From contig JAJRZD010000033.1 in assembly GCA_024275415.1 (NCBI GenBank), positions 1 through 32,000 of the forward strand: DNA of 32,000 bases, read 5' to 3'. Numbering within the stretch: the stretch's first letter is position 1; the number at the start of each line of letters is the position of its first letter. The translations under genes and the position numbers were made by a program. This document shows positions 6,535-25,293 of this stretch, in pieces. The DNA is from an archaeon (GTDB lineage Archaea > Asgardarchaeota > Thorarchaeia > Thorarchaeales > Thorarchaeaceae). The notes under the pieces are model-generated. The model searched no databases, had not been told where the DNA came from, and worked only from the letters and a program-made list of their open reading frames with translations.

Positions 6535-6686
6535 TGGTCAGACCTTTTCCTATTAAGATGGAATCTGCAATCCGAATGGGATAAGCCTATTGGTGCATTG
6601 GCAGTAACATTACAAAACCATTAATTAGACTCAAGATGCTTCTGCAACCTGTTCAGGTAACCACCTATTCGGGTCTTGATAAAACC

Positions 6687-7301
6687 ATGATTACAATTAT
6701 CGATTATGGTATGGGAAACTTGGGTTCGATACAAAACATGCTGAAGCGGATGAACTTTGAAGCTGAGATAACCTCTGATCTTGACCGTATCGTAGATGCC
6801 GAGAAGCTGATCCTCCCCGGAGTGGGGGCATTTGACCATGCTATGACGAGTCTGGATGAACGAGGAATGATTCCGCTGCTGAATGACTTGGTGGTGCGAA
6901 AGAAAGTACCTATCTTGGGCATTTGTCTTGGGATGCAACTTCTTTCAAAGAGAAGTGAGGAAGGTGAGCTTGAGGGCTTCGGATGGATTGATGCTGAAAC
7001 CATCCGTTTTAAGATCCCTCCAGATGCAGGACTTCGGATTCCCCACATGGGGTGGAATACCCTCATTATAAAGAAGGACTCTCCACTCTTCGAGGATATG
7101 TACGATGAACCCCGGTTCTATTTTGTTCATTCGTATCATGTATGTTGCGCTTCCGAACAGGATGTGTTGGCTGTAACAACTCATGGAATCGAGTTCACAT
7201 CTGCTGTGATGCATGACAACATATTTGGGTTGCAGTTCCACCCTGAAAAGAGCCACAAGTTTGGGATGAAGGTACTGAATAATTATGCGGAGCTAGTTTG
7301 A
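6687..7301 (+). CDS. hisH: Glutamine amidotransferase, HisH-like (glycan acetamidino type, AglY/WbuY-like)
   Basis: IIDYGMGN, LILPGVGAF, GICLGMQ (catalytic Cys), PHMGWN, YFVHSY and FHPEKS. Clustered with WbuX, so probably for glycan modification rather than histidine synthesis. Confidence 0.93.
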   Translation: MITIIDYGMGNLGSIQNMLKRMNFEAEITSDLDRIVDAEKLILPGVGAFDHAMTSLDERGMIPLLNDLVVRKKVPILGICLGMQLLSKRSEEGELEGFGWIDAETIRFKIPPDAGLRIPHMGWNTLIIKKDSPLFEDMYDEPRFYFVHSYHVCCASEQDVLAVTTHGIEFTSAVMHDNIFGLQFHPEKSHKFGMKVLNNYAELV

Positions 7302-8059
7302 TGCTTAGAACAAGAGTCATTCCCTGTCTTCTGTTAAAGGGCAGAGGACTTGTCAAGACGGTGAAGTTCCGAGATCCTGTCTATGTTGGAGACCCCATAA
7401 ACGCTGTACGGATATTCAACGATAAAGAGGTTGACGAACTCGTCTTCCTCGATATCACAGCAACTATCGAGAAACGTCCTCCCCAGTTCGATTTAATTGG
7501 TGACATTGCCACGGAGTGCTTCATGCCATTTGGCATTGGTGGTGGCATTCATGATATCGAAACAGCAAATAGGTTGCTTAAGATGGGCTCCGAGAAAGTC
7601 ATATTCAATTCAGCCGCTACTGATTTGAACCTGATACGCGAAGCAGCCAATCTTTTTGGCAGTCAAAGCGTTGTCGCATCGATAGACGTGAAACGGAGCA
7701 GATTTGGGAAATATCAAGTCTACACACACTCTGGACGAGTGAACACGAAGAAAGATCCTGTCGAATTCGCAAAGGAACTGGAAAGTGCTGGGGCAGGTGA
7801 GATATTCTTGAATTCTATCGATCGGGACGGCACAATGATTGGTTATGACATCCAATTGCTCAAGTCAGTGACAGAATCCATCAACATACCCGTTGTAGCC
7901 TGTGGAGGTGCAGGAAAGCTGGATGATTTTAGGGAAGCAGTAATAAATGGTGGAGCATCAGCTGTTGCAGCCGGGAGCATGTTCGTGTTTCATGGCCCCC
8001 ATAGAGCTGTATTAATTAACTATCCTACTCAAGAGCAACTCAAACAGTATCTCAACTAG
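7301..8059 (+). CDS. hisF: AglZ/HisF2 family cyclase-like subunit for acetamidino modification
   Basis: RVIPCLLL..GLVKTVKF..P.YVGDPINAVRIFN.KEVDEL and SIDRDGT..GYD. The C-terminal GSMFVFHGPHRAVLINYP is typical of the glycan-associated HisF2. Start overlaps the hisH stop. Confidence 0.93.
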   Translation: MLRTRVIPCLLLKGRGLVKTVKFRDPVYVGDPINAVRIFNDKEVDELVFLDITATIEKRPPQFDLIGDIATECFMPFGIGGGIHDIETANRLLKMGSEKVIFNSAATDLNLIREAANLFGSQSVVASIDVKRSRFGKYQVYTHSGRVNTKKDPVEFAKELESAGAGEIFLNSIDRDGTMIGYDIQLLKSVTESINIPVVACGGAGKLDDFREAVINGGASAVAAGSMFVFHGPHRAVLINYPTQEQLKQYLN

Positions 8060-8075
8060 CACACGAGGGAAGAAA

Positions 8076-9167
8076 TTGACTCAGGAATATCAGATGTGCA
8101 AACGATGCGTAATGGACACTACAGATCCAAAAATACAATTCGATGAGAACGGTATTTGCAATCATTGCACTAACTATCTAGCGCGAGCTGAGAAGGTACT
8201 CTTACCTCCTGAAAGACGAGAGGCGAAGTTGAAGGAATATATCAACAAGATAAAAGAATGGGGGAGAGGCAAAGAATACGACTGCATCGCCGGTGTTTCT
8301 GGGGGCGTTGATAGCACGTATATGGTGTATATTGCAAAAGAGCTGGGTCTTCGACCCCTTGCAGTCCATCTTGACAACGGATGGAATTCCAGACTGGCAG
8401 TTACCAATATTGAACGCGTGCTGAACCAGTTGGATGTCGACCTATACACCCACGTCATCGACTGGGAGGAATTCAAGGATATCCAAATGGCATATTTCAA
8501 GGCATCCGTTGTGGACATTGAGGTCGCATCTGACCACGCTATAGTAGCAATGATACACAATATAGCTGCTGATAGGAGAATCAAGTACATTCTAAGAGGT
8601 AGCAACTTCGCAACCGAAGGGATAATGCCAAGAAGCTGGGTCTGGGTCAAGAATGACCTTGCCAACCTCAAGGATATCCATCGCTACTATGGAACCCGGA
8701 AACTAAAGACATATCCTACCCTTGGGTTCCTGCGTCTTGTGTATCTGAGGAAAATCAGGGGCATAGAGCGATTCCCGTTATTGAACTACATTGACTACAA
8801 TCGGGATGAGGCAAAGAGGTTTCTCATCGAGGAACTTGGATGGGAAGATTATGGCGGGAAACATCACGAATCAATCTTCACCAAGTTCTATCAGAGTTAC
8901 ATCCTCCCAACAAAGTTCAACATCGACAAGAGGAAGGCACATCTTTCAACATTAATCTGTTCAGGACAGATAACGCGAGAAGACGCCCTCAAGCGCCTTG
9001 AAGAGCCTCTCTATGACGAGTCCGAGCTTAAGAGAGATACCGAGTACGTGCTGAAAAAGTTCGGTTGGACTGAAGAAGAGTTCCGAGAGATAATGAATCT
9101 GCCAATAAGGCAGCATGATGAATTCAAAACCGATGTATGGATAAGGAAATTCTTAGGTTCTGGATGA
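8076..9167 (+). CDS. N-acetyl sugar amidotransferase (WbuX/AglX/PseA family)
   Basis: CKRCVMDT...CNHC, PP-loop SGGVDS, HLDNGWNS and YGGKHHES. TTG start with GAGGG upstream. Confidence 0.93.
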   Translation: MTQEYQMCKRCVMDTTDPKIQFDENGICNHCTNYLARAEKVLLPPERREAKLKEYINKIKEWGRGKEYDCIAGVSGGVDSTYMVYIAKELGLRPLAVHLDNGWNSRLAVTNIERVLNQLDVDLYTHVIDWEEFKDIQMAYFKASVVDIEVASDHAIVAMIHNIAADRRIKYILRGSNFATEGIMPRSWVWVKNDLANLKDIHRYYGTRKLKTYPTLGFLRLVYLRKIRGIERFPLLNYIDYNRDEAKRFLIEELGWEDYGGKHHESIFTKFYQSYILPTKFNIDKRKAHLSTLICSGQITREDALKRLEEPLYDESELKRDTEYVLKKFGWTEEEFREIMNLPIRQHDEFKTDVWIRKFLGSG

Positions 9168-9176
9168 ATTTATAGG

Positions 9177-9899
9177 ATGACGGAGGCAGTGCCATTGAGA
9201 ACACTTGCAACAATTTGTGCAAGAGGAGGGTCGAGAGGGCTAAAGGACAAGAATATCCTTTCTTTGAATGGCAAACCACTAATCGCCTATACAATTGATG
9301 CAGTAAAGAGCTGGGGAGGGGCAAATCGAATCATAGTTTCCACTGATTCACGAGTGATTGCCAGTATTGCCAACAAGTATGGGGCTGAAACTCCTTTTCT
9401 ACGACCCCCTGAGTTGGCCACTGACACGGCAGCAAAGCTTCCCGTCATTCAGCACGCTGTGAGGTTCTGTGAAGAAGAATCAGGACTCCGTTATGATGTA
9501 GTCATTGATTTGCAGCCTACCTCTCCATTGCGGTCAGTCGATGATATTCAAGGCGCATTTGACCTATTCATGGAAACCCGACCAGATGTACTGTATACTG
9601 TGAAAGAATCAAAAGATAACCCCTATTTCACAATGGTAGAACTTGATGAATCTGGATTTGCACGATTATCAAAAAAAACTGAGAGCGAAGTGTTTCGAAG
9701 ACAGGATGTACCTAAGGTATATACAATAAATGGCTCTCTCTATATCTTCGATCGTGACTTTCTAATGAACACAAGTTCTCTCCATAATGGAAATGCAAGA
9801 GTCTACATTATGGATGAACTATCTTCTGTCGATATTGATACAGAGCTTGATTTCAGATTCATTGAATTCCTATTGCGTGACAAGACTTATTCACCATAA
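9177..9899 (+). CDS. neuA: CMP-nonulosonic acid synthetase (acylneuraminate cytidylyltransferase, NeuA/LegF)
   Basis: ICARGGSRGLKDKNI, LQPTSPLR and DIDTELD. Confidence 0.95.
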   Translation: MTEAVPLRTLATICARGGSRGLKDKNILSLNGKPLIAYTIDAVKSWGGANRIIVSTDSRVIASIANKYGAETPFLRPPELATDTAAKLPVIQHAVRFCEEESGLRYDVVIDLQPTSPLRSVDDIQGAFDLFMETRPDVLYTVKESKDNPYFTMVELDESGFARLSKKTESEVFRRQDVPKVYTINGSLYIFDRDFLMNTSSLHNGNARVYIMDELSSVDIDTELDFRFIEFLLRDKTYSP

Positions 9900-9959
9900 G
9901 ACCGGAATTCATTTAGACCCGTATCTACTACTATTGGTCTAGAACAAAGTCTGATTGAT

Positions 9960-10766
9960 ATGAGATTGAGGTATTTCATTATGGATGATTCAAACATTCT
10001 TTTGGGCAGAAATGTATTCGTTCATCCTACTGCACAAATATCTGGTGCTGATATCGAGATTGGGGATTTCGCTTGGATTGGTCCCAACGTTTTGATTAGT
10101 GGTCGGAGTATCAATATAGGACGCGAGGCTTGGATTGGAGCGTCCGCAATTATTGGAGGCGGTCGGGCTGAGATGGGGTCTTTGGAGTGTGGTGATTTTC
10201 TTCATTTAGGGATACGAGGTCAAATTAACACCGCCAACACTGTGCTCATCGGTGACGAGGTCGGGATTGGGATGAATGGTATGGTTTTCTCCCACGGTGC
10301 ATATCTTTCAGAATATGATGGCTTTCCCTATCAAGACTCGCCAGTCAGTATCGGCTCTAATGTCTGGCTTCCATATGCAATTGTAACTCCTGGTGTTAAA
10401 ATCGGTAGTAATGTTGTAGTTGCAGCTATGTCCCTCGTCAACAGGGATCTGCCATCTGGCTGCATCGCAGGTGGAATCCCAGCTAAAGTGTTGAAGGAAC
10501 ATGTTTACCCTCGAAACATCACTCAGGAGCAACGGATTGCTGTTCTGGATCGGATCATACAGGAGGCAGCATTTTATGGGGTCGAGGTGTCTCGTGACTC
10601 GATAGGAGAAACTCTTACCCAGGGAAGAACAGTTTTCGATCTTCCGAAGCGAAGAATTGAGGGTCCTGCAAATAGTGCTACCGAGCGTTTGAAGAACCTT
10701 CTTCGACGACATGGAATTAGGTTCAGGTTTTATAATGATGGAGAACAATACCGAGAGTGGGACTAG
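9960..10766 (+). CDS. Left-handed beta-helix (hexapeptide repeat) acyltransferase with a C-terminal extension
   Basis: Repeated [IV]GxxxxIG hexads, PVSIGSNVWL...PGVKIGSNVVVAAMSLV..DLP and GGIPAKVLK. Confidence 0.85.
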   Translation: MRLRYFIMDDSNILLGRNVFVHPTAQISGADIEIGDFAWIGPNVLISGRSINIGREAWIGASAIIGGGRAEMGSLECGDFLHLGIRGQINTANTVLIGDEVGIGMNGMVFSHGAYLSEYDGFPYQDSPVSIGSNVWLPYAIVTPGVKIGSNVVVAAMSLVNRDLPSGCIAGGIPAKVLKEHVYPRNITQEQRIAVLDRIIQEAAFYGVEVSRDSIGETLTQGRTVFDLPKRRIEGPANSATERLKNLLRRHGIRFRFYNDGEQYREWD

Positions 10767-11914
10767 TGCGTGATTGTCTTCTTCATAAATGCTTCATCGA
10801 TCTCTAAATTCTTTAGGATTTCCACGATTCTCTCAGCAGTCCTCCCGTCCCCGTACGGATTCTGGATATCCTCTAATGAACCTCTGAATTCTTTGCTCAA
10901 TGCCTTTTTGATTCCTTCAATTATCTTTTCTTTCTTCGCTTCAATATTGATGATGTTCTCGCCACGCGCTCTAGAATCTTGTCTTGTGCCAATATTGACG
11001 ACAGGCAGTTTGACTGAGGCTGCTTCAATTATACCACTGCTAGAATTTCCAACCATTACCGCAACGTGTTTCATCAGGTCTATGTAATCATCATGCGGCA
11101 GGCTTTTTATGATTTTTATGTTCTTTCGTCCTCTTAACTTCTCTATCTCTTTGATTATCTCTTCACATCCAATGTCGTTGTTTGGATATATTATGACGGA
11201 CTTCAGTCCAATCTCTTTGAGGGCTTCTGCAATTTGATTCATCTGGTATCCCATATTTGTTTCATGATGAACCGGATGAAATATCACCAGCAATGATTGG
11301 TCGTCTAATTGCATTCCAATCCTATTGGATATGTCCTCCTTCTTTATGACTCCTTTTGCAACAATTGTATCTAATCCCATAGATCCAACAACATGAATTC
11401 TCCAAGGTTCTTCACCCATTTGTATGAGCCTTTCTTTATGCTCATCGATTGCCACAAGATGAAGATGTGCGAATCGTGAAATTGAGTGGCGAATGCTTTC
11501 ATCGATGGTTCCACTATTTGTTTTATCTCCGCCATGGACATGAATCACTGGGATTCTGAGAAACACTGCTGCAAGAGTCGCAGCCAAGGGTTCGAGACGG
11601 TCTCCCAGCACCACTAACATGTCAGCATCAATCATATCAAGTTCGATAGTAAACCCTTTGATTCCTCTTGCAAGTGCCAGCCCGTGATATCTTGTCGTGG
11701 GGTCGGTTTCATCATACATTTCGACAACGGATCGAATTGGAATTCCTTCCCTTCTAATATCTCCTATCGTTTCCCCGAATTTCTTTAGCAGGTGAAGTCC
11801 TGTGACAATCAAAGATAATTCAATGCTCTCATCGGCTTCTAGGATCTTCAACAAAGGCTTCAAAATACCATACTCTGCTCTTGAGCCTGTCACGACAGCA
11901 ATCTTTCTCCTCAT
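10763..11914 (-). CDS. neuC: Hydrolysing UDP-N-acetylhexosamine 2-epimerase (NeuC/LegG)
   Basis: VVTGSRAEYG, VLGDRLE, HVHGGD..SGTIDESIRHSIS, GNSSSGIIEA and NPYGDG. Probable start 11914. Confidence 0.94.
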   Translation of the reverse strand: MRRKIAVVTGSRAEYGILKPLLKILEADESIELSLIVTGLHLLKKFGETIGDIRREGIPIRSVVEMYDETDPTTRYHGLALARGIKGFTIELDMIDADMLVVLGDRLEPLAATLAAVFLRIPVIHVHGGDKTNSGTIDESIRHSISRFAHLHLVAIDEHKERLIQMGEEPWRIHVVGSMGLDTIVAKGVIKKEDISNRIGMQLDDQSLLVIFHPVHHETNMGYQMNQIAEALKEIGLKSVIIYPNNDIGCEEIIKEIEKLRGRKNIKIIKSLPHDDYIDLMKHVAVMVGNSSSGIIEAASVKLPVVNIGTRQDSRARGENIINIEAKKEKIIEGIKKALSKEFRGSLEDIQNPYGDGRTAERIVEILKNLEIDEAFMKKTITH

Positions 11915-11976
11915 AATATCGACCGTCTTTTTTGTGGATATGGATAACTCGGCCAAATCCAAACCAGTGTCATACG

Positions 11977-13023
11977 TTACTCTATCATATCCCTTACTAT
12001 CACATGATCCTTGCTTATATTGGTTCTAGCTCTCTTTCCAATGACATTTCTTAGTTCTTTTGGTCGCATTCCTGTCTGTGGTCTCTTGATGTCAATCATG
12101 TCTTTTGAGATGATACAACCCTCCGGTATGTCCACTTTTGCGACAAGGCTTTTTCTGGCTACCGATGCGATTTGGATTTCTTCTGGTGTAGGCTTCTTGA
12201 CACCATCTCCCAATGCAGATTCAACAGTTCTAACGAGGGCAACTAACCGTTTGAAGTCATCAGGTTCTATTGAGGCAATGTGGTCAGGCCCTGGAAGATT
12301 CCTGTCTAGTGTGATGTGCTTTGCAATGACACATGCACCTAACGACACTGCAATCAAAGCTGCTGTTTCACCAATGGTATGATCGGAATATCCTGTCAGC
12401 AAACCGAATCGTTCTCTTAGCGTCTTTATTGTCAACATATTTTGGTCTTCGATATTTGAAGGATAATTTGACACACACTGCAATAAGACTATTTTTTCAT
12501 TTCCTTGGTTCTGGATTGCATCCACTGCCTCTACTATCTCATCTAATGTCCCCATGCCTGTAGAAAGCAGGATAGGTTTTCCAGTCGATGCCATTTCTTC
12601 TATGGCTGGGATGTTTGTCAAGTCACTAGAGCTTACCTTGTGGGCTGGGACAAGAGGGTCGAGAAACTCGATGGCGTCAGAGGAGTGTGGAGTTGACATG
12701 AACAAAATGTCCTTTTCTTTACAGTATTCTTCAAGCAAAGGGAAAAATGAATAATCCATCTCTAAATTCTGTAGCATTCCTAGCTGACTATCCTTTTTTC
12801 CGGTATTTGACTTTTGATACGCTGCCATATCTGCTGATGCAGTGACCACACCTTCTGCTTTGAAGGTCTGGAACTTGACGACATCAGCCCCTGCATCTTT
12901 TGATACATCAATCAATCTCTTGGCTAATTCGAAATTTCCATTGTGATTCACACCAACCTCTGCAATAATCAGACATGGCTCACCATCTCCAATGTACCTA
13001 TTCCCGATTTGTATTCGATTCAT
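11977..13023 (-). CDS. neuB: Nonulosonic acid synthase (NeuB/LegI family) with C-terminal SAF domain
   Basis: IIAEVGVNHNG, VKFQTF, STGM, GYSDHT, KHITLD and ARKSLVA. Probable start 13023. The usual EKH motif reads AKH here. Confidence 0.95.
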   Translation of the reverse strand: MNRIQIGNRYIGDGEPCLIIAEVGVNHNGNFELAKRLIDVSKDAGADVVKFQTFKAEGVVTASADMAAYQKSNTGKKDSQLGMLQNLEMDYSFFPLLEEYCKEKDILFMSTPHSSDAIEFLDPLVPAHKVSSSDLTNIPAIEEMASTGKPILLSTGMGTLDEIVEAVDAIQNQGNEKIVLLQCVSNYPSNIEDQNMLTIKTLRERFGLLTGYSDHTIGETAALIAVSLGACVIAKHITLDRNLPGPDHIASIEPDDFKRLVALVRTVESALGDGVKKPTPEEIQIASVARKSLVAKVDIPEGCIISKDMIDIKRPQTGMRPKELRNVIGKRARTNISKDHVIVRDMIE

Positions 13024-13164
13024 ATCTCTTCCACCTTCTTCAGTGAACACATGGAAACTCGATTATTTTCGAGGTTATCATGTGCATCTGCTTGCTGCAT
13101 ATAGTTTTTCTAAGATTGGTTAGTTAGACCGAATGATATAAGTTGTATCTCTAAATCTTCGAAC

Positions 13165-14328
13165 TTGTGGCAACCTGAAGTCTTGGTGACCCCTATTACG
13201 ACTGAATGGAAAATCCCTCTCTACAAGATTTTCTGGGATGAGGACGATGTCGAGTCGGTCGCGAGTGTGATTCGACGGGGCATGTTCTGGACGGGAGGAT
13301 CTTCTGTTTCTATGTTTGAAAATGAAGTAGCAGGTCTGGTTGGCATAGAATATGGTGTTGCGTTCAATTCTGGCACTTCTGCACAATCCGCTATTTTAAC
13401 CGCTCTAGGAATTGGTTCTGGTGATGAGGTAATTGTCCCATCATTCACGTTCATATCTACTTGCAACACAGTAGTACATCATGATGCAACACCGATTTTT
13501 GCAGAAATTGAAACTGAAACTTTCGGGTTAGATGCAAATGATGTCGAAAGAAAAATCACTGCAAAGACAAAGGCTGTGATACCAGTACATTACGCTGGAG
13601 CAAGCTGCAGAATTGATGAGATTATCAAGATAGCAGATGAACACGACTTATATGTGATAGAAGATGCAGCTGAAGCACTTGGGGCATATTACAATGACAA
13701 TCCTGTTGGTTCATTCGGGATAGGTGCCATGTTCAGTTTTTGTGGAAACAAAGTCATTACGACTGGCGAGGCCGGAATGCTAGTAACTGACGATGAAAAA
13801 CTTGCTGAAACCCTCCGTCTAGTAAGATCCCATGGCAGGGTCGATAAGGGTTCGTACTTCTCGTCCTCTGACTCGTTTGACTATGTTTCTTTCGGGCACA
13901 ATTGGAGAATTTCTGAGATAACTGCCGAGTTAGGCCGATCCCAGCTGCGTAAATTACACACAGTCATCAAACTAAGAAGAGAAGTGGCAAAACTTTATGC
14001 GGAATCATTGAATGACTTACCACTTACTTGCCCAAACCCGACTGAGATGCCGGGTCACATTTTCCAGATGTATACTGTTCTTTTTGACTCGCACTCAGAT
14101 CGCGAAAAAGCGAGGGCGCATCTGACTCGTGAAGGAATCATGTCCAAGATATATTTTGATTGTGTCCATCTCACATCAGCTTACAGGTCGATGTTTAACA
14201 CCACTGAAGGTATGCTTCCTGTTACAGAGGATATAGCTCGGAGAGTTTTGACTTTGCCAATTTTCCCGACCATGACCTCTGAAGAAGTGCAGATGGTCAG
14301 TAAAACGATACAGCATTCTATTGCCTGA
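13165..14328 (+). CDS. DegT/DnrJ/EryC1/StrS PLP aminotransferase (LegC/PglE-like)
   Basis: FNSGTSA, GDEVIVPSFTF, VIPVHYAG, IEDAAEALG and FSFCGNKVITTGEAG (PLP lysine). Exact start uncertain. Confidence 0.94.
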   Translation: MWQPEVLVTPITTEWKIPLYKIFWDEDDVESVASVIRRGMFWTGGSSVSMFENEVAGLVGIEYGVAFNSGTSAQSAILTALGIGSGDEVIVPSFTFISTCNTVVHHDATPIFAEIETETFGLDANDVERKITAKTKAVIPVHYAGASCRIDEIIKIADEHDLYVIEDAAEALGAYYNDNPVGSFGIGAMFSFCGNKVITTGEAGMLVTDDEKLAETLRLVRSHGRVDKGSYFSSSDSFDYVSFGHNWRISEITAELGRSQLRKLHTVIKLRREVAKLYAESLNDLPLTCPNPTEMPGHIFQMYTVLFDSHSDREKARAHLTREGIMSKIYFDCVHLTSAYRSMFNTTEGMLPVTEDIARRVLTLPIFPTMTSEEVQMVSKTIQHSIA

Positions 14329-14336
14329 ATGTCAAT

Positions 14337-14987
14337 TCACACAACAATCCTACCTACAACAAACCCCTCCGCAAATTGGGTTCCCGCTTCTGCGCCTCTC
14401 ATTTTTGCCAAGGTTCTAATAGCTTCGATTGACCTTGGGTGAGGGAACTGTTCGATTTCCGAATCATAGGCGTTGAATGCTTTGACTTTAAGGTCGATGT
14501 ATGTTGTGATGTCAACATAATATTTTGCCTGAAATGGAACCTGTTTCATGCTTGACGTTTCGTAGAACAAGACTGTGCCTTTTTTGAACACATCAAGATA
14601 CGGCCGAGTAACTACTTGAGTTGCCTCATAGACGAACCTGTGATCCATATGCAATTCGCTAATATCCGGAGCATATACAACATCCGGCTTGAACTCTTGC
14701 ATTGCCTTACTCATTACAGCGGTTATCTCTACCAAGCCGGTTTCCATCAATCTGGCATCAGGTAGATCAAAGAAACGAATGTTTTTTGTCCCTAGAATCT
14801 CACAAGCTTTCTTGCAAGCATCTCTTCTCACTTGAAGCATCTGGGGATTATCATATTGCGCACTTACCCCCTCGCTTATGACGACAACACTTACGACATC
14901 GCCATTATCGGTGTGTTTTGCAATGGTTCCTCCAACTCCAAGAACCTCATCATCAGGGTGCGGAGCAAATACGAGTACATGTTTCAA
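14337..14987 (-). CDS. PIG-L/LmbE family N-deacetylase (copy 1)
   Basis: APHPDDEVLGVGG and LHMDH metal-binding motifs. Confidence 0.92.
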   Translation of the reverse strand: MKHVLVFAPHPDDEVLGVGGTIAKHTDNGDVVSVVVISEGVSAQYDNPQMLQVRRDACKKACEILGTKNIRFFDLPDARLMETGLVEITAVMSKAMQEFKPDVVYAPDISELHMDHRFVYEATQVVTRPYLDVFKKGTVLFYETSSMKQVPFQAKYYVDITTYIDLKVKAFNAYDSEIEQFPHPRSIEAIRTLAKMRGAEAGTQFAEGFVVGRIVV

Positions 14988-15061
14988 TATCTTTTCTCCT
15001 CCAGTGTGTTCAATGAGAATCTATCTTTCTCCTTATCTTTTCTTGTAACGTGTCTTCAACT

Positions 15062-15718
15062 CTATAATTTTCGAATGACTTCTGCAGGGTTTCCTGCAAC
15101 TAGCGATCGTTCAGAAGTGTCTTCTGTTACTACTGCACCCATTGGCACAACGCAGTCTCGATGGATTGTTATGTCATCTCTCACTATCGCACCTGCTCCG
15201 ATGAACACACGTTCTTCGATTGTGACCCCTCCTAGCAGAACCGAGTTCGGGCTAAGATTGGCATATGGGTTAACTTTCACATCATGCTCGATATTGACAT
15301 AATTGTTGATGATAACTCCTTCATGGATTGTTGCGTCAGAACCCACAGAGGCATTGATTCCGACACTGACATTCCGATCTATTTTTGAAGTACTCACGAT
15401 TACAGCACTAGGATCTATAACTGTCGCGAACTCGAAAGCAAAATCCGTGAAGGTTCTGACAATTTCAGCAGCCTTTTGTCGTTCGGCGTTTCCATCATAT
15501 GCACTCCCCCCATATGCAATGATAACCTCTGCGTAGTCGAAAGGCGACTCGATTCCATTTGTAAGGTCTCCCACGACGGGACATTCTTGTAACGACTCCG
15601 ACCTTTTCTCAAATATATCTACGAATGCGATGTATTTCTTGTGGATTCCGTTTCTTTCAAGATATCCTAAGACGACCTTCCCGTGTCCGCCTGTCCCTAC
15701 AATTATGTAATTTGTCAT
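15062..15718 (-). CDS. NeuD/PglD family sugar acetyltransferase (LegH-like)
   Basis: IIVGTGGHGKVV, hexapeptide repeats, IEHDV (catalytic His) and VAGNPA. Probable start 15718. Confidence 0.9.
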   Translation of the reverse strand: MTNYIIVGTGGHGKVVLGYLERNGIHKKYIAFVDIFEKRSESLQECPVVGDLTNGIESPFDYAEVIIAYGGSAYDGNAERQKAAEIVRTFTDFAFEFATVIDPSAVIVSTSKIDRNVSVGINASVGSDATIHEGVIINNYVNIEHDVKVNPYANLSPNSVLLGGVTIEERVFIGAGAIVRDDITIHRDCVVPMGAVVTEDTSERSLVAGNPAEVIRKL

Positions 15719-15857
15719 CGAACTCTCTACTATCAATGCAGTGAATGGCTTGTAATCTTTTTCATTCCAATATGCAATTAGCTCTTCTCTTCAACTCGTT
15801 CATCTCTCGACCGAAAACAACAAAAAGGCAAACCAAGTGGGTTGGGTTTGAAAACAT

Positions 15858-16778
15858 ATGACTCAAGTAAAACCAGCTATTTTGGTGACCGGTGGGGCCG
15901 GTGCTATTGGTTCTGCATTAGTTGAGCGTATTTTAGAAACATTGGGTGACGAATTCACAATAAGGGTCTTCGATAGCGATGAATATGGCTTATGGCAACT
16001 GCAGCAACGGCTCAAGAACAATCCCATTGTCCGATACTTGCTGGGAAGTGTCAGAGAATACTCTCGAATTGAAGAGGCCATGAAAGGTGTGAAATACGTT
16101 TGTCATGCAGCCGCATACAAACATGTAGGACTTTGCGAGTACAACCCATTTGATGCAGTTGAAACCAACATCATTGGAACCCAGAACACAATTCGTGCAG
16201 CGATTGCAACAGATAGTGTAGAGAAGTTTCTCTTTGTTAGCACTGACAAAGCAGTCAATCCTACAAGCCTAATGGGAGCTACTAAATTGATTGGTGAACG
16301 ATTAGTTGTAGCATCAAATCAGATAAAGGGCACTAGGGATATAGGATTGAGTGCTTCTCGGTTTCCCAATGTGATTCAGACGAGGGGTAATGTGTTTGAA
16401 GCCTGGCAAAAGCAGCTGCAAACTGACGGCAAGATTGTTGTAACGCATCCCGATATGACTAGGTATTTTTTGCCGATTCAATCTGCAGTTGACTTTCTAA
16501 TCGAGTGTTTTGGATTAATGAAAGGTGGGGAGATTTTTATCCCTAACTTGACTGAGAAAGATACCCGTAAGATTGTGGATGTAGCAGAAGAGTGGTTGGC
16601 AAAACAAGACAAGAGTGGTGAGATTATCTTTGGTTCTCCTCAATATGGCGAGAAACTCTCTGAAGTGTTATACTCCGAAGCTGAGAAACCCTATCTGGAA
16701 AAACTAACAGAGCGTGTTCAAGTTATACGCTCACCTATCTATGATTTTCTACACTGGAATAACCCCCTCGAGTCATAA
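15858..16778 (+). CDS. UDP-GlcNAc 4,6-dehydratase, PglF/CapD-type catalytic domain only (LegB-like)
   Basis: TGGAGAIG, HAAAYKHV, STDKAVNPTSLMGATK (Met-type MxxxK) and HPDMTRYF. Confidence 0.9.
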   Translation: MTQVKPAILVTGGAGAIGSALVERILETLGDEFTIRVFDSDEYGLWQLQQRLKNNPIVRYLLGSVREYSRIEEAMKGVKYVCHAAAYKHVGLCEYNPFDAVETNIIGTQNTIRAAIATDSVEKFLFVSTDKAVNPTSLMGATKLIGERLVVASNQIKGTRDIGLSASRFPNVIQTRGNVFEAWQKQLQTDGKIVVTHPDMTRYFLPIQSAVDFLIECFGLMKGGEIFIPNLTEKDTRKIVDVAEEWLAKQDKSGEIIFGSPQYGEKLSEVLYSEAEKPYLEKLTERVQVIRSPIYDFLHWNNPLES

Positions 16779-16886
16779 CAGGAATGCACTCAAAACTAGC
16801 TTGTGTTTCTCTTATTATGTACAACACGAGAAAGTACTATTGCATTGACACATACTTTGCAATACGTATCTCATTGATTTCGGAAG

Positions 16887-18323
16887 CTAGGTGTGTTTCT
16901 CTTTTGAGATATGCGATTCTCTTATGCGCTGGATTTCAGAAATCATGTTCTCAATGGCGTTACTCTTGAAGAGGAACCCTGTATCGAATGTTTCTCTTGA
17001 CTTGTTATCTGACAGCTTACCAATCAAGTCTTCTGGACTTTTGACGCTTTCCACAAATCCTTCTTGTATTATGTGGTTCATTATCTCAGCACCCTTGATG
17101 TCAACAATAAAAGTTCGTAACCCAAATGCTAATCCCTCATATAGGGCGGTCGAACCAACACCCACAATAACCTTGGACTTGGAAAATAGTTCGTATAATG
17201 ATGCATCCAATCTGTCGATGACATTGATATCTGTGTGAAGCAACCAAGGATATTTCTCCTGCCATCCGTGTACTTCTTGTGGATGCAACTTGTACAATAT
17301 CTCGTGATCCAAATCTAGCTGAGTACTTAATTTGGCTGCAAACTTAGATAGATCCTCACCTATGGTGTCTTGAGAGATAAACAAAATATAATCACCATCT
17401 CCATGTTTTCTGAATTCCTCTTTCTGCATTTCCAGATATGGGAATCCCACCGATATTATTCGTGACTCATCAACTGGGAAATCAGCAACGGTTCTCCAGT
17501 AGTCGCCCCAGACAAAGAGATAGTCTGCAAAAGATTTTTTCGTTCCATTAGGGAAAGAATAACCAACATGGTATGGTGATATCACTCCATGTTGGAGTTC
17601 TATGGTGACCACACCCAATTTTTTGCAGGCCTCTATGAGATCCTCCCATCCATATCCTTGCGTCAAAATCACGATTTCTGGCTCAATCTTCATAAGAAGT
17701 TTCAAGAACAGCGGCAGTCGGGCCTTTCTTTCCTGTAGCGTCCGTTTTGTCATAGATATGAGGTTAACCGAAACACCAAAGGTCGATTTCAGAATGGTTC
17801 TTATCTCCTCAAGTTTACCATATTCCTCCTCTGTGAGTTTGATTTTGACCCGTCTTAGAATTCGTTTCAGATAGGTTCTCATTTCGATGAAGTCGAAATA
17901 TCGGAGGTTTTTTGTCTTTGCGGGAGAATAATGCTTGTTATCGAAATGGGATTCTATTGCTATAATACTATCCTGCATCCGATCGATTAGGAGGTCTGAA
18001 TAAATGTCCCACCACACACCACCTTGAAACTTTCTTCTCGCACTACTGATTACAATGATTGATGATTTAGGAGATAGAAAGGGGTTTTTTGATACTCGGA
18101 ATACGGATAGCATCAACCGTTTTATCCGCGACCCATTGCTTTTTTTTCCCCCATGACTACTGTCTGTGGTTGTACCTTCCCTGATAATTTTTGAATATAC
18201 TTGGAAACGCACTCGTTCCCAGAACAGGACATCCTGGATTTTGAGGTTGAACAAATCGTGTTGCCTTTCAATTTGCGAAAGCATCTCGTAAACTTCTACC
18301 CAGTCCATTGCTTCGGCCTTCAT
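16887..18323 (-). CDS. Putative GT-B glycosyltransferase, candidate nonulosonic acid transferase
   Basis: ELQHGVI, YLFVWGDYW, VGFPYL, FISQ, YKLHPQE and STALYEGLAFG resemble capsule/TagF-like and sialyltransferase-like folds. Located within the neu cluster. Start uncertain (18368, 18323 or 18308). Confidence 0.65.
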   Translation of the reverse strand: MKAEAMDWVEVYEMLSQIERQHDLFNLKIQDVLFWERVRFQVYSKIIREGTTTDSSHGGKKSNGSRIKRLMLSVFRVSKNPFLSPKSSIIVISSARRKFQGGVWWDIYSDLLIDRMQDSIIAIESHFDNKHYSPAKTKNLRYFDFIEMRTYLKRILRRVKIKLTEEEYGKLEEIRTILKSTFGVSVNLISMTKRTLQERKARLPLFLKLLMKIEPEIVILTQGYGWEDLIEACKKLGVVTIELQHGVISPYHVGYSFPNGTKKSFADYLFVWGDYWRTVADFPVDESRIISVGFPYLEMQKEEFRKHGDGDYILFISQDTIGEDLSKFAAKLSTQLDLDHEILYKLHPQEVHGWQEKYPWLLHTDINVIDRLDASLYELFSKSKVIVGVGSTALYEGLAFGLRTFIVDIKGAEIMNHIIQEGFVESVKSPEDLIGKLSDNKSRETFDTGFLFKSNAIENMISEIQRIRESHISKEKHT

Positions 18324-18671
18324 TATTGTTTTTGGATAAAGTGTGCAGGATTGTCCGGAATATCTCATAACTCCTTTTATTTTGTTGCCAATGCAAGGCT
18401 CTTGTGAAAAACCAGCTATAAGTTTCTGTTTGAAATCCGCATGAATGACTGCGTGTCAGAATTCCAACACCTCGGTTCTTACCACAATCAATCTTATGAC
18501 ATCCGGTTGGTTTTTTCACACATCTTCGCAATGCAATATGTCAATGATTGGCACTTCTCAGAAATGATGGGGTTTTTGACTTACACATTGTCTGTGTGCT
18601 TGTTCATTGCCGGATAGATTAAATATGGTGACCAAGGACTTCAATTTGCTTATTCCACGAGGGTCTACTCA

Positions 18672-19724
18672 ATGGGTATAAAGAAGTTCATCATGAAACA
18701 GTATTGGCGTATTGGCACTATAAGAGCACTGCTAAGCCTTGCTCTTGCAATGTTGGTCATTGGTCGTCTTTACTATCAGTTCATCCCAGGGCTTAAAGAC
18801 ATGGGCATGTATGGTGCATTAATACTGGGCACGTTTCTAGTCTTTATTTTCATGGGAATCGGCTGGGCATATGATGTCAAGGCAAAGATGTGGAGTCAGA
18901 AGGAACAAGCTATCACCGAACGCAATGCATACTCTTACATACCAAGTTATTGGGAAATTGTGGTACACTATGCAATCTATCGTTCAATGGTACGCACGTT
19001 CAAGCAGATTCTGTCCAAGAACGGACTTGATAGTGACTACCTAGATGACGCACAACGATATCTGGATGGATACTTTGGACGCAAGCTCACACGTGAGGAT
19101 ATTTTTTCATCTTTGTCTGCCGGACTTGCATTCTGTCAAAAACATCCTTTTTCAACAACAACATCTCAGGAACAAAAGAGAGTTCCGATAAGGAGTAGAA
19201 TAAAGCTTGGTTTTCAGGTCATGATGCTTCGACTTAACTGGATTCAATCTCTGACAGGATTGGTTCAAGAGGTGTTGGTCTTTGGAACTTTCTTTATCGC
19301 GTTAATCTATTTACAGGGTAAAGAGGTTGTTGATGAAATCCTGCCCTTTGATATTCTAGTAATTGGTTTCTTTCTAGTGTCAATTCCCTTGTTTGCTGTG
19401 TTGGTTTCTTTAGGATGGCTCTATGACAGGAAGTTCAAGATTTGGGCCCCTGATTTCGTGGTTAGAATCGAACGGAACCCGTATACGTATCTGGCTGAAC
19501 CAAAATTACACGTAATGTACTTTCCCTTCTATTTCGCCCTTCTTCAAACTATGAAAAAGATATTCATTTCCCATCAAATGGATGTGACCGAGTTGGATCG
19601 GATACAGCAGTTTCTTGGCTCTTACCAGAACTTAGATGTAGCCAAAGATGAACACATGATAATCGCTAAAGAGTTACGGAAAACTTACGGAGAATTATTT
19701 GGTAATCAAAAGCGGGGGCATTGA
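18672..19724 (+). CDS. Hypothetical membrane protein made of two tandem copies of a ~170 aa module
   Basis: Both halves have about two hydrophobic segments followed by G[WY]xYDx5Wx8ERN[AP]YxY. Confidence 0.85.
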   Translation: MGIKKFIMKQYWRIGTIRALLSLALAMLVIGRLYYQFIPGLKDMGMYGALILGTFLVFIFMGIGWAYDVKAKMWSQKEQAITERNAYSYIPSYWEIVVHYAIYRSMVRTFKQILSKNGLDSDYLDDAQRYLDGYFGRKLTREDIFSSLSAGLAFCQKHPFSTTTSQEQKRVPIRSRIKLGFQVMMLRLNWIQSLTGLVQEVLVFGTFFIALIYLQGKEVVDEILPFDILVIGFFLVSIPLFAVLVSLGWLYDRKFKIWAPDFVVRIERNPYTYLAEPKLHVMYFPFYFALLQTMKKIFISHQMDVTELDRIQQFLGSYQNLDVAKDEHMIIAKELRKTYGELFGNQKRGH

Positions 19725-19728
19725 ATAG

Positions 19729-20238
19729 ATGCGAATAAGAAAGTGGTTTATGAAACAACAATGGCGGATTGTACAGATCCGTGGAATCTGGGGATTGTTC
19801 TATGGCATATTCCTTTTGGCTTATGCATATTTCGAATACATCCCAATATTTGCAGGTCTTGGCATGTGGGGCCCTGTCGTGTTCTCGGGAGTGCTTTTAG
19901 TTGTGTTTCTAATACTGGGTTATTTGTACGACCGAGTATTTGTCCTCTGGGCCCCATCACAAGAGGTTGTGATTGAACGTAACCCATATCAGTACGTGCC
20001 TAGTCCAAAAGAGCATATATTCTGGTTTCCTCTTTATTCCAGTCTTTTAGACAGTATAGAGAAACTTGCAATGGAGTATGGCATTGACACATCTGACATT
20101 CAAGAAACAAAGGAATATTATGCGGAAATACAGAAACTTCGGCCTGATATACCTGATGATTTAGAACGGGCTGTGGAGCTAAGGAACGACTTCGTTTCAA
20201 AGCACCGGTATTGGAATGGGAACGCTCAAGACAACTGA
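19729..20238 (+). CDS. Hypothetical membrane protein, single-module paralogue of the upstream gene
   Basis: Aligns without gaps to the first half of 18672-19724 (MxIxKxxMKQxWRIxxIR...GYLYD...ERNPYQY). 4-bp gap from the upstream gene. Confidence 0.85.
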   Translation: MRIRKWFMKQQWRIVQIRGIWGLFYGIFLLAYAYFEYIPIFAGLGMWGPVVFSGVLLVVFLILGYLYDRVFVLWAPSQEVVIERNPYQYVPSPKEHIFWFPLYSSLLDSIEKLAMEYGIDTSDIQETKEYYAEIQKLRPDIPDDLERAVELRNDFVSKHRYWNGNAQDN

Positions 20239-20324: not shown

Positions 20325-21650
20325 ATGGCCCTCGGTAAATTATGTGTAGTTGGTCTTGGATATGTAGGCTTGCCAGTAGCCGCAAAATTCGCAGAGGTCG
20401 GTTTTAACGTTGCAGGGATTGATATCGTCAAGAACAAGGTTACCCTCATAAATGAAGGGAAATCTCCCATTGAAGGGAACGAGCCAGATCTTGCAGAACT
20501 GGTTGCCAAGGTAGTATCTGACGGCAGCCTGCGCGCTTTTACTTCTTACGAGTCTGTCAAGGACGCAGACTTTGTTATCATCGTTGTGGAAACCCCGTTC
20601 GATAATGGTGCACACAAGCCAATCTACGGTGCATTGATATCCGCCACAAAAAGCGTTGGTCAACATATCAAGAAGGGCGTATTAGTCATCATCGAATCGA
20701 CAGTTGCTCCGGGCACGGTCAAGAACATTGTTCAGCCACTTCTAGAGTCTGAATCAGGGATGGTAGCTGGCACGGACTTCATGCTTGCCACAGCGCCTGA
20801 AAGAGTAATGCCTGGCAAGCTGTTACATAATCTAGTACACATGGATCGTGTGGTTGGCGGAATAGATGAGGCAAGCACATCGAAGGCAGTAGAACTCTAC
20901 AAACATATCGTCAAGGGCCACCTGTATCCGGTCGATAGTACCACAGCTGAGGTCGTGAAGACTGTAGAGAATGCATATAGGGATGTCCAGATAGCATTTG
21001 CAAACGAGATTGCCCTTTTGTGTGAGAACATTGGTGTTGATGTTTGGCAGGTACGGGATCTGGTCAATAGGGCCCCAAGTCGCAATATGCATCTTCCTGG
21101 AGCTGGTGTAGGTGGGCATTGTCTTCCGAAGGACTCGTGGTTACTCGCCTTCGGTGCAAAGGGGAAGTACAAGCCCAAACTGATATCATTGGCACGTGAC
21201 ATAAACGATGCAATGCCTGCCCACATGAGTGACCTGTGTGAGGAGGCACTTCAATCCCATAATCTGAGGCTGCATGGAAGCAATGTCACCATACTAGGTG
21301 TCGCATATCTTGAGAACTCTGATGACACTCGAAACTCGCCTGCATTGATACTGAAACAGAATCTTGAGGTGCTTGGAATCAATACAACACTTCATGATCC
21401 GCATGTGAAGTCAACTGACACGTTTCGGGTCTTGAGCGACTTTGAGGAAGCAGTGGAAAACTCTGACTGTGTTGCGATTGTCACCGCTCATGACGAGTAC
21501 AGAAAAATCGACTTGGACAGGTTAAAGGGACTGATGCGGACGCCAATTCTAGTCGATGGTCGGAACGTGTTGGATCCTGATGAATGCTCCCACAAGGGAT
21601 TCTCGTTCCGGGCGATTGGGCGTCCGATTAGGAATGCACGAAATCACTGA
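20325..21650 (+). CDS. UDP-N-acetylhexosamine 6-dehydrogenase (WecC/WbpA family)
   Basis: VVGLGYVGLP, IESTVAPGT, PERVMPG, EVVKTVENAYRDVQIAFANE, GVGGHCLPKD (catalytic Cys) and DTRNSP. Confidence 0.95.
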   Translation: MALGKLCVVGLGYVGLPVAAKFAEVGFNVAGIDIVKNKVTLINEGKSPIEGNEPDLAELVAKVVSDGSLRAFTSYESVKDADFVIIVVETPFDNGAHKPIYGALISATKSVGQHIKKGVLVIIESTVAPGTVKNIVQPLLESESGMVAGTDFMLATAPERVMPGKLLHNLVHMDRVVGGIDEASTSKAVELYKHIVKGHLYPVDSTTAEVVKTVENAYRDVQIAFANEIALLCENIGVDVWQVRDLVNRAPSRNMHLPGAGVGGHCLPKDSWLLAFGAKGKYKPKLISLARDINDAMPAHMSDLCEEALQSHNLRLHGSNVTILGVAYLENSDDTRNSPALILKQNLEVLGINTTLHDPHVKSTDTFRVLSDFEEAVENSDCVAIVTAHDEYRKIDLDRLKGLMRTPILVDGRNVLDPDECSHKGFSFRAIGRPIRNARNH

Positions 21651-22287
21651 ATACCAACTTCTCTATCTCGAAGGCTTCAGCATATTCAGTCCCGATGAAT
21701 GTGCCCCCATAGTTCAGGAATGCCCGTATCTTGTCAGGCTCGAAATAGTCCCTCCTAATCACTTGGGATTCGTATTTGTGGAGCATTTCGATTTTCTTGC
21801 TCACATCCTCCTCATCGAACTTGATAAACACACTCGGGGTGAATCCAGGCACGGTTCCTGGGACCTGATACATCCAGATACTTGTTCCTGTTCGCATAAA
21901 TGCCCGTCTGGTTTCTTCTCCGATTGTCTTGTGATCTTGATGGAGGTCATTAATGGATGGCGTTATCACAAGATCCGGCCTGAATTCCTTCCTTTCGAGA
22001 TAGATACGCTCAAGGATGTCTTGCCTGTAGTCAGGGAATCTCCTGACAGGGTATTCAAGGATCGTAAGGTCATTGATTCCTAGATGCTGGGCGGCGGCCT
22101 TGCATTCCTTTATCAGAACATCTTCATCATGTTTTGACCTGTCGACACTTTCTTTACAATCGCTGAAAACAAGGGACTTAACAGTGATACCACTTTCCAC
22201 CAGTTTCCTGACAGTACTACCAGCCCCAAGTTCCATATCGTCTGTATGTGGTGAGAGAACCAATACCCTATCCATGTTTAACTTCAT
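21628..22287 (-). CDS. PIG-L/LmbE family N-deacetylase (copy 2)
   Basis: SPHTDDMELGAG and DLHQDH motifs. Its 3' end overlaps the convergent dehydrogenase by 23 bp. Confidence 0.9.
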   Translation of the reverse strand: MKLNMDRVLVLSPHTDDMELGAGSTVRKLVESGITVKSLVFSDCKESVDRSKHDEDVLIKECKAAAQHLGINDLTILEYPVRRFPDYRQDILERIYLERKEFRPDLVITPSINDLHQDHKTIGEETRRAFMRTGTSIWMYQVPGTVPGFTPSVFIKFDEEDVSKKIEMLHKYESQVIRRDYFEPDKIRAFLNYGGTFIGTEYAEAFEIEKLVFSDFVHS

Positions 22288-22409
22288 TGTTCCAACCTCG
22301 CTTCACGAAGGTCAACCGAGCATGTTGAGAGTGAAAGATAACGTTTATGGCAATACTGATGACACCATATTCTTTTTATCGAGGAGTCAAGAGGAGATGG
22401 TAGTCTACC

Positions 22410-23075: not shown

Positions 23076-23108
23076 ATGAATCTAGAGCTACAAGCGTGGT
23101 CGGTTTCG

Positions 23109-25219: not shown

Positions 25220-25293
25220 TGATTGAACACCCATTCGTTCTTGCTGTGTATCATCAGTATGTCTTGCCGTTGTCCTTCTATTTACTCTATCCC

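Follow-up and report, generated by a model that had tools for sequence, protein, structure and literature searches.

A predicted legionaminic-acid-type pathway core in an accessory glycan island of a Thor-type Asgard archaeon

Contig JAJRZD010000033.1 of the archaeal genome assembly GCA_024275415.1 carries an island of glycan genes, in which putative enzymes for a nonulosonic (sialic-acid-like) acid lie beside a HisH/HisF/WbuX trio. By the window we mean the whole stretch of DNA that was analysed, namely the first 32 kb of this 82.5-kb contig; the genome amounts to 3.5 Mb, being 92.9% complete and 4.46% contaminated. A preliminary description of positions 6687-18323 had proposed here six steps of a legionaminic acid (Leg) pathway together with the trio, and all of the genes it named are indeed uninterrupted open reading frames (ORFs) at the positions it gave. 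Three further genes of the same interval were left out of it: a PIG-L deacetylase, a second hexapeptide acetyltransferase and an ORF of 493 aa. The family calls given below are Pfam and NCBIfam model scores in bits compared with curated cut-offs, which most island genes pass.

6636..7301, + strand: hisH-type glutaminase subunit (TIGR01855 236.5, cut-off 105.4; GICLG and HPE motifs)
7298..8059, + strand: AglZ/HisF2-type cyclase-like subunit (NF038364 367.4, cut-off 310)
8076..9167, + strand: WbuX/WbpG/AglX-type N-acetyl sugar amidotransferase, a PP-loop ATPase (TIGR03573 321.8, cut-off 203.2)
9177..9899, + strand: cytidine monophosphate (CMP)-nonulosonate synthetase, NeuA/LegF-like, CTP_transf_3 (PF02348 73.4, cut-off 22.6)
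9960..10766, + strand: hexapeptide-repeat (LbH) acetyltransferase of the WcaF/LacA/Vat type, 268 aa (PF00132 and a weak NF007797 match)
10763..11962, - strand: hydrolysing nucleoside diphosphate (NDP)-sugar 2-epimerase, NeuC/LegG-like (TIGR03568 424.6, cut-off 235.9)
11977..13050, - strand: nonulosonate synthase, NeuB/LegI-like (TIGR03569 408.1, cut-off 399.65)
13165..14328, + strand: DegT-family sugar 4-aminotransferase (PF01041 360.4)
14337..14987, - strand: PIG-L family de-N-acetylase (PF02585 102.5; HPDD and HxxH motifs)
15062..15736, - strand: PglD/NeuD/VioB-type N-acetyltransferase (TIGR03570 165.8, cut-off 160.8; PglD_N domain)
15858..16778, + strand: soluble 4,6-dehydratase of uridine diphosphate (UDP)-N-acetylglucosamine (GlcNAc), Polysacc_synt_2, 306 aa (PF02719 256.3)
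16887..18368, - strand: GT-B fold protein of an uncharacterised family, 493 aa (AlphaFold2 (AF2) model and fold matches)
18672..20238, + strand: two paralogous predicted membrane proteins of 350 and 169 aa, mutually similar
20325..26100: remaining glycan island, with an NDP-sugar 6-dehydrogenase, a second PIG-L, WbqC, a sulfotransferase, GT4 and GT2 (family matches)

The true start of hisH is likely the ATG at 6687, and that of neuB likely lies at 13023. NeuB retains its metal-site motifs NHNG, SDH and EKH, WbuX contains the PP-loop SGGVDS and two CxxC motifs, and the dehydratase shows GxGxxG, TDK and MxxxK (MGATK). The NeuA-like protein is the sole cytidylyltransferase of its kind above the cut-off in the genome. 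The spacing of hisH, hisF2, wbuX, neuA and the LbH gene, with a 4-nt overlap followed by gaps of 16, 9 and 60 nt, is tight and supports co-transcription of the five, in agreement with the earlier proposal that the trio is co-transcribed with neuA; the LbH acetyltransferase gene would be the last of this operon. Across the window, module genes alternate strands over five transcription units. As to the two accessory enzymes of the module, O-acetylation or alternative N-acylation was inferred for the LbH acetyltransferase at 9960..10766, and N-acyl editing for the PIG-L de-N-acetylase at 14337..14987, homologues of which lie inside NeuB/NeuC clusters at three loci, one from Asgard archaea and two from Bacteroidota. 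The island extends downstream to ~27.5 kb, and there the second PIG-L gene stands back to back with the WbqC-family gene, followed by the sulfotransferase gene (window 21628-23075).

We read this region as an accessory glycan island with a UDP-linked, legionaminic-acid-type pathway core for a 5,7-diamino nonulosonate, a reading to which we assign a probability of about 60%. The pathway itself is of a known kind, and in Thorarchaeota metagenome-assembled genomes (MAGs) such genes already bear their names in public annotation. Family scores and motifs support a gene set that is complete and of the NeuC type, not the pseudaminic acid (Pse) type. The attribution to Leg draws mainly on comparative evidence, with linkage as the deciding point.

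Linkage was examined in 19 Asgard loci holding both NeuB and NeuC. Dehydratase and DegT homologues are present in the same stretch in 15 of them (of the other four, two run off their contigs and two are ambiguous), so that dehydratase, DegT, NeuC, NeuB and NeuA are linked in 15/19 loci, forming same-strand runs in the genomes G011, G385, G348 and others. The G385 locus is the most instructive: nine genes on one strand, adjoining TatD, in the order hisH-hisF-wbuX-neuA-neuB-neuC-small LbH-degT-dehydratase. This module and that of the window share their chromosomal position beside TatD. A gene for a B12-binding radical SAM enzyme adjoins the dehydratase gene in the G385 island (locus L089, 4129-5520) and is missing from the window.

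For the choice of nucleotide carrier, two features of the genome are informative. The dehydratase scores 54 bits under the LegB model (TIGR04180), for which the cut-off is 475, and the archaeal GlmU, at 25% identity, is the closest that the whole genome comes to a PtmE-like match; no PtmE-like nucleotidyltransferase was found in the genome beyond it. Because the dehydratase belongs to Polysacc_synt_2 rather than to LegB, and because the best PtmE-like match is GlmU, a UDP-linked start is the best reading of these sequences, as had been assumed from the window, and the search for ptmE and aglB that had been recommended for the rest of the genome returned no PtmE-like enzyme and a single STT3/AglB, the latter an enzyme of N-glycosylation.

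Comparison with solved structures agrees with the Leg-type reading for part of the enzymes. The best solved relative of NeuC is 5XVS/5ZLR, a hydrolysing 2-epimerase acting on di-N-acetylbacillosamine (diNAcBac) linked to guanosine diphosphate (GDP) or UDP, with 243 bits, against 176 bits for human GNE. The acetyltransferase at 15062..15736 finds its best solved relatives in PerB, VioB and PglB, which are N-acetyltransferases of 4-amino sugars. DegT is closest to 7B0D, deposited as a glutamine--scyllo-inositol transaminase, and then to perosamine synthetases and ArnB, while NeuB matches SpsE (188 bits), PseI (180) and NeuB (175) almost equally and is thus not discriminated by these comparisons.

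The dehydratase alignment comprised 30 sequences, including those of the E. coli O161 Leg cluster and of Haladaptatus, and 23 of them were NeuC-linked. All 23 NeuC-linked enzymes, those of O161 and Haladaptatus among them, carry the Met of MxxxK, and Klebsiella PseB carries Tyr. A Tyr was also found in the dehydratase of G005, which neighbours a NeuB on a contig without NeuC. At this position the window enzyme shares its Met with the O161 Leg enzyme and differs from PseB, but it shares the Met with the inverting FnlA and CapE as well.

Phylogenies of NeuB and NeuC had been recommended as a check, and they settle one half of the question. As anchors we used E. coli O161 for Leg; E. coli K1, O104 and O171 for neuraminic acid (Neu); a Klebsiella plasmid with annotated pseBCFGI and S. 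fredii NGR234 for Pse; and Haladaptatus for a haloarchaeal cluster. Sequences of C. jejuni, L. pneumophila and Halorubrum PV6 were not among them, and the NeuB tree is a quick tree with support from the Shimodaira-Hasegawa-like approximate likelihood ratio test (SH-aLRT). The window NeuB falls into a 16-member clade, the named members of which are Thorarchaeota, Promethearchaeota, ANME-1 and Methanophagales; branches with an SH-aLRT support of 99% lie between it and the Pse anchors. This archaeal clade lies outside the bacterial clade (96%) containing both Leg and Neu anchors, and the NeuC tree likewise parts an Asgard-plus-Haladaptatus clade from a bacterial clade with both kinds of anchor. 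Thus, by these sequences NeuB excludes Pse, and the two trees alone cannot separate Leg from Neu, because the archaeal clades fall outside a bacterial clade in which both anchors are mixed. Context labels of the bacterial NeuB relatives were mixed and uninformative, and a search of genomic contigs for related loci returned bacterial loci only, at 40-49% identity, with no Asgard records.

The module seems to have a mosaic history. Identity to G385 amounts to 65-81% for HisH, HisF, WbuX, NeuA and the dehydratase, and is lower for NeuB (54%), DegT (43%) and NeuC (39%). PIG-L and full-length PglD genes are missing from G385, and the window NeuC, instead of joining its Thor kin, clusters with sequences from a different Asgard family. 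Judging from the sequences, the central block at 10.7-15.7 kb looks exchanged. None of six other genomes of the same genus contains NeuC. Such behaviour fits a variable surface-antigen locus, and variability within a genus is as expected for a surface antigen under pressure from viruses or neighbours.

Across 400 genomes of the Asgard phylum, NeuB (detected at E<=1e-30) occurs in 101, and in 27 of the 90 high-quality genomes; NeuC occurs in 42, in 40 of them above the cut-off. A complete NeuC-type module is present in about a tenth of Asgard genomes, which makes it common but patchy. The preliminary description had held nonulosonates to be documented in few archaeal glycans; in the light of these counts, their rarity is softer than was stated there. 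Some 60 of the 101 NeuB-bearing genomes have no NeuC. Their NeuB sequences form separate long-branch groups (L048, L049, L050, L051 and other loci), and the NeuA-like ORFs beside them measure about 390-560 aa, compared with 240 aa in the window, which points to other, undefined nonulosonate-like routes. In G012 (contig C5, 81.5-83.7 kb; L044) the module appears to be decaying, because neuB and neuC carry in-frame stops, one TGA in the former and four stops in the latter. The genome of the window itself has a second, very divergent NeuB (38% identity to that of the window) on the 4.3-kb contig C22 (locus L004), accompanied by a PseB/FnlA-like dehydratase of the Met type, a UDP-sulfoquinovose-synthase-like gene and an IS5 transposase fragment; this contig may represent either part of a further sugar cluster or contamination.

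RpoH, encoded on the same contig, places the host among the Thor-type Asgard archaea: its best named relatives are in Thorarchaeota MAGs (67-73% identity), followed by Promethearchaeota and Lokiarchaeota. The nearest named relative of NeuB also comes from a Thorarchaeota MAG, at 62% identity, and its closest metagenomic relatives reach 64%. Contamination as the source of the island was ruled out by this Thor-type RpoH and by the synteny of the island with relatives. RpoH itself (window 2861-3430, + strand) is a long form of 189 aa, in which a restriction-endonuclease-like (Mrr_cat) domain precedes the Rpb5-type C-terminal domain, an arrangement that recalls the two-domain eukaryotic Rpb5 and is common to more than 100 relatives of the Thor, Loki and Promethearchaeota types.

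All three genes of the trio exceed their curated cut-offs (TIGR01855, NF038364 and TIGR03573) with their motifs intact, and, judged by these models, the trio is, as had been claimed for it, a true acetamidino module of the AglZ/WbuX type. Histidine biosynthesis was ruled out as its function: the HisF protein passes the AglZ/HisF2 model and fails the canonical hisF model (227, cut-off 294.55). The trio is the sole HisH/HisF pair in the genome, where no second HisH was found and where the AglZ/HisF2 gene is the only full-length PF00977 gene; the subunit it encodes is the ammonia supplier. WbuX is found in 15 of the 400 Asgard genomes, with orthologues of 68-77% identity in seven genomes other than that of the window. 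Its gene directly precedes neuA in both the window and G385, and lies within a few kb of the module in G139, G348 and G105. The trio is thus a mobile three-gene unit, linked to neuA in the window and one relative and alone in others. In G130, where it stands alone, it is followed on the same strand by genes for a 551-aa amidohydrolase (L128 10635-12290) and two Snf7 (ESCRT-III) proteins.

The 493-aa protein deserves a separate comment. Its AF2 model has a mean confidence (pLDDT) of 82 and a GT-B fold; VIA-align gives Z 15-17.6 to many GT-B enzymes, a polysialyltransferase included, and the best Foldseek matches are NeuC-type 2-epimerases (5XVS/5ZLR) and TagF, with TarL and WaaA lower down, both searches demonstrating a generic GT-B fold only. 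Pfam returned no significant match, the NeuE-family DUF6716 reaching E 0.03, and the K1 NeuE protein used as a query found no match in the genome. Homologues occur in 48 of the 400 Asgard genomes; NeuB accompanies them in 40 of these 48, often as a direct neighbour on one contig. Pse and Leg transferases of Tannerella have been described as GT-B/TagB-like (PMC5420450). The modelled protein is a candidate for the transfer of the nonulosonate to a surface glycan. Downstream of it, the paired membrane proteins at 18672..20238 lack any Pfam or NCBIfam match; the 350-aa protein seems to contain the 169-aa unit in duplicate, and the pair is kept beside the nonulosonate module, together with the GT-B gene in several Thor relatives, in G011, G016, G385, G348 and G362.

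The route we propose is drawn from enzyme families, intact motifs and conserved linkage, the order of reactions being inferred from the genes alone. UDP-GlcNAc would come from the archaeal GlmU encoded on another contig and would be dehydrated by the Met-type Polysacc_synt_2 enzyme, aminated at C4 by the DegT enzyme and N-acetylated by the PglD-type enzyme, yielding UDP-diNAcBac. NeuC would then hydrolyse and 2-epimerise this intermediate, NeuB would condense the product with phosphoenolpyruvate, and NeuA would activate the resulting nonulosonate with cytidine triphosphate. The trio, translationally coupled to neuA, most likely amidinates the nonulosonate at one of its N-acetyl groups. Editing or addition of acyl groups is the probable task of the PIG-L deacetylase and the second LbH acetyltransferase, and the neighbouring GT-B protein probably moves the CMP-sugar onto a surface glycan, which may also contain uronic acid and sulfate.

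Several points weigh against this interpretation and have to be set beside it. The DegT and NeuA proteins stay below equivalog cut-offs, DegT reaching 243.8 under the LegC model (cut-off 420) and NeuA 145 under the PseF model (cut-off 205.7), and NeuB exceeds the TIGR03569 cut-off by just 8 bits. The archaeal NeuB and NeuC clades stand apart from all anchored bacterial Leg and Neu sequences. A Met-type dehydratase together with NeuC had been presented as indicating Leg; this stands for the NeuC-linked enzymes, but inverting FnlA and CapE structures also align with Met at the PseB Tyr position, because of which the Met rule, as far as such alignments go, is valid empirically within nonulosonate clusters and is not a general marker of C5 retention. 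The GT-B protein is a putative transferase by its linkage and fold. Finally, sequence does not reveal the stereochemistry by which Leg differs from its 4-epi, 8-epi and further isomers.

The most serious competitor concerns the trio and leaves the nonulosonate pathway as described: the amidino group might be placed on another sugar of the same glycan, such as an N-acetylated hexuronic acid or a 6-deoxy-N-acetylhexosamine, with AglXYZ of M. maripaludis, WbpG of P. aeruginosa and WbuXYZ of E. coli O145 as models. The trio lies apart from nonulosonate genes in G130, G132 and G135: in G130 it sits between CorA/MscS genes and the amidohydrolase and Snf7 genes with no sugar genes near, and in G135 the trio and the NeuB cluster are on different contigs. 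Moreover, 6 of the 15 WbuX-bearing genomes (G130, G132, G152, G190, G103 and G171) have no NeuB detectable at E<=1e-30, the window encodes an NDP-sugar 6-dehydrogenase, the genome has a WecB-like epimerase, and the sole genetically characterised archaeal homologue, MMP1081, acts on a derivative of N-acetylmannosaminuronic acid (PMC2952790). Against these stand the 9 nt that separate wbuX from neuA and the recurrence of the order hisH-hisF-wbuX-neuA in G385, as well as the presence of NeuB in 9 of the 15 WbuX-bearing genomes compared with 101/400 overall, which, the genomes being related, is not an independent test. Genes of a 2,3-diacetamido uronic acid route, of the WbpB/E/D type (3-oxidoreductase, 3-aminotransferase, 3-N-acetyltransferase), were not seen in the window. 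The sole other DegT gene of the genome, on contig C21, stands alone, and a second amino-sugar uronic acid cluster around it was sought and rejected, none being there. Because the trio is coupled to neuA here and unlinked elsewhere, we put the conversion of one N-acetyl of the predicted nonulosonate to an acetamidino group at slightly better than even odds, and another glycan sugar as the target at roughly one chance in three. Of the amidino-Leg product proposed in the preliminary description, the Leg-type route is thus supported by linkage, and the amidino group on the nonulosonate is plausible, with the unlinked trios of three relatives against it.

The remaining alternatives concern the sugar itself. 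The same enzyme families could produce another stereoisomer (4-epi-Leg, 8-epi-Leg, or an acid of the acinetaminic or fusaminic type), which we regard as unlikely: sequence cannot fix the stereochemistry of amination or aldol addition, PglE is less close to DegT than are perosamine synthases, ArnB and PseC, and the archaeal NeuB clade includes no characterised member in the trees built. On the other side, 8-epi-Leg and acinetaminic acid routes need extra epimerase or oxidoreductase genes of the short-chain dehydrogenase/reductase (SDR) type, and no such genes are found in the module; Leg is also the isomer of the one archaeon studied (PMC6137143). It is quite improbable that two pathways run side by side here, NeuC, NeuB and NeuA making N-acetylneuraminic acid (Neu5Ac) from UDP-GlcNAc and the dehydratase, aminotransferase and acetyltransferase making a separate diNAcBac. 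The alternating strands of the window would suit such an arrangement, NeuB passes a model named N-acetylneuraminate synthase, and neither tree parts the archaeal clade from Neu-type enzymes. Yet NeuB and NeuC fall outside the K1/O104/O171 clade, the linkage of the dehydratase and DegT genes with neuA, neuB and neuC is conserved in 15/19 loci, in some of them on one strand, NeuC scores higher to the diNAcBac epimerase than to human GNE, and Leg is what the characterised archaeon with this gene set produces (PMC6137143). That the island makes pseudaminic acid is hardly credible. The best NCBIfam models for the dehydratase, DegT and NeuA are PseB, PseC and PseF, but all three scores are below cut-off (229.4 for PseB against 407.75; 301.8 for PseC against 423.5; PseF as above), as is that of NeuB under the PseI model TIGR03586 (286.8 against 340.25). 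NeuC is present in the place of PseG, and neither PseG nor PseH was found in the genome: the absence of PseG, first noticed in the window, extends to the whole 92.9%-complete genome, in which TIGR03590 found no match and a fused PseG-PseH reference none by tblastn. The acetyltransferase is of the LbH and not the GNAT type, Met replaces the PseB tyrosine, and the NeuB tree separates the window from the Pse anchors as described above.

The Leg-type reading adds to what is known about Asgard surfaces in an incremental way, its biochemistry being textbook and its genes already publicly annotated. Protein glycans have been analysed in only one Asgard archaeon, in a study that makes no mention of nonulosonic acids (PMC11284389); in the library searched, we found no paper linking Asgard archaea with nonulosonic acids. 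Our survey of the phylum met NeuB in about a quarter of genomes and a complete NeuC-type module in about a tenth, which gives an expectation open to testing. The conserved GT-B protein is nominated as the transferase for nonulosonate transfer, a step poorly known in any organism. It is tempting to go further and to suppose, as a long shot, that Asgard archaea may commonly cap surface glycoproteins with an acetamidino-bearing, acyl-edited Leg-type sugar of archaeal lineage, installed by an uncharacterised GT-B family that is also widespread as a bacterial 'hypothetical protein', and that the question of where eukaryotic sialic acid enzymes arose could be informed by the distinct NeuB and NeuC clades of archaea.

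Among the known systems, the GDP-linked Leg route of C. jejuni is defined by a LegB-type dehydratase and PtmE, neither of which was found here. The E. coli O161 Leg cluster (L052) resembles the window in bringing together a Met-type dehydratase, DegT, NeuB, NeuC and a cytidylyltransferase, and its dehydratase motif STDK...M..SK is of the same kind; unlike the window, it has genes for a FemAB-type acyltransferase and for a PtmE-like nucleotidyltransferase. Its NeuB and NeuC fall within the bacterial clade, and its enzymes are 27-47% identical to those described here. The trio has the same three-protein architecture as AglX/AglY/AglZ of M. maripaludis (MMP1081-1083), WbuX/Y/Z of E. coli O145 and WbpG-HisH2/HisF2 of P. 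aeruginosa O5. Those systems act on a mannuronic acid derivative or on N-acetylfucosamine, whereas the operon partner in the window is neuA, and the target may be the nonulosonate. A nonulosonate is the amidino target of PseA and PtmG of Campylobacter.

The O-antigen of L. pneumophila is a 5-acetamidino Leg, and its cluster also holds HisH/HisF-like genes. The UDP-linked CMP-Leg route of this bacterium, with PglF/E/D-like enzymes followed by NeuC, NeuB and NeuA (Glaze et al. 2008, as cited in PMC6137143), employs the six enzyme families of the window in an identical logic; in the window, the dehydratase is of the Polysacc_synt_2 type, the acetyltransferase of the LbH type and the epimerase of the hydrolysing NeuC type, with no dedicated GDP-sugar-forming enzyme. 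Unlike L. pneumophila, the window has a short, soluble dehydratase of 306 aa, NeuB and NeuC of archaeal clades, and genes distributed over five transcription units with a PIG-L and a second LbH gene embedded. A parallel in an archaeal host is Halorubrum sp. PV6, whose matching genes (LegB, C, H, G, I and F) are clustered with those for N-glycosylation. LegI and LegF have been shown to be active there, and the N-glycan to be sulfated, to contain uronic acid and to end in a Leg cap (PMC6137143). Compared without the PV6 sequences, Halorubrum N-formylates its sugar with a formyltransferase, and the window island has the acetamidino trio and a deacetylase instead. To match the uronic acid and sulfate of the PV6 glycan, the island has a 6-dehydrogenase and a sulfotransferase, and the NeuC of another haloarchaeon, Haladaptatus, belongs to the same clade as the Asgard NeuC.

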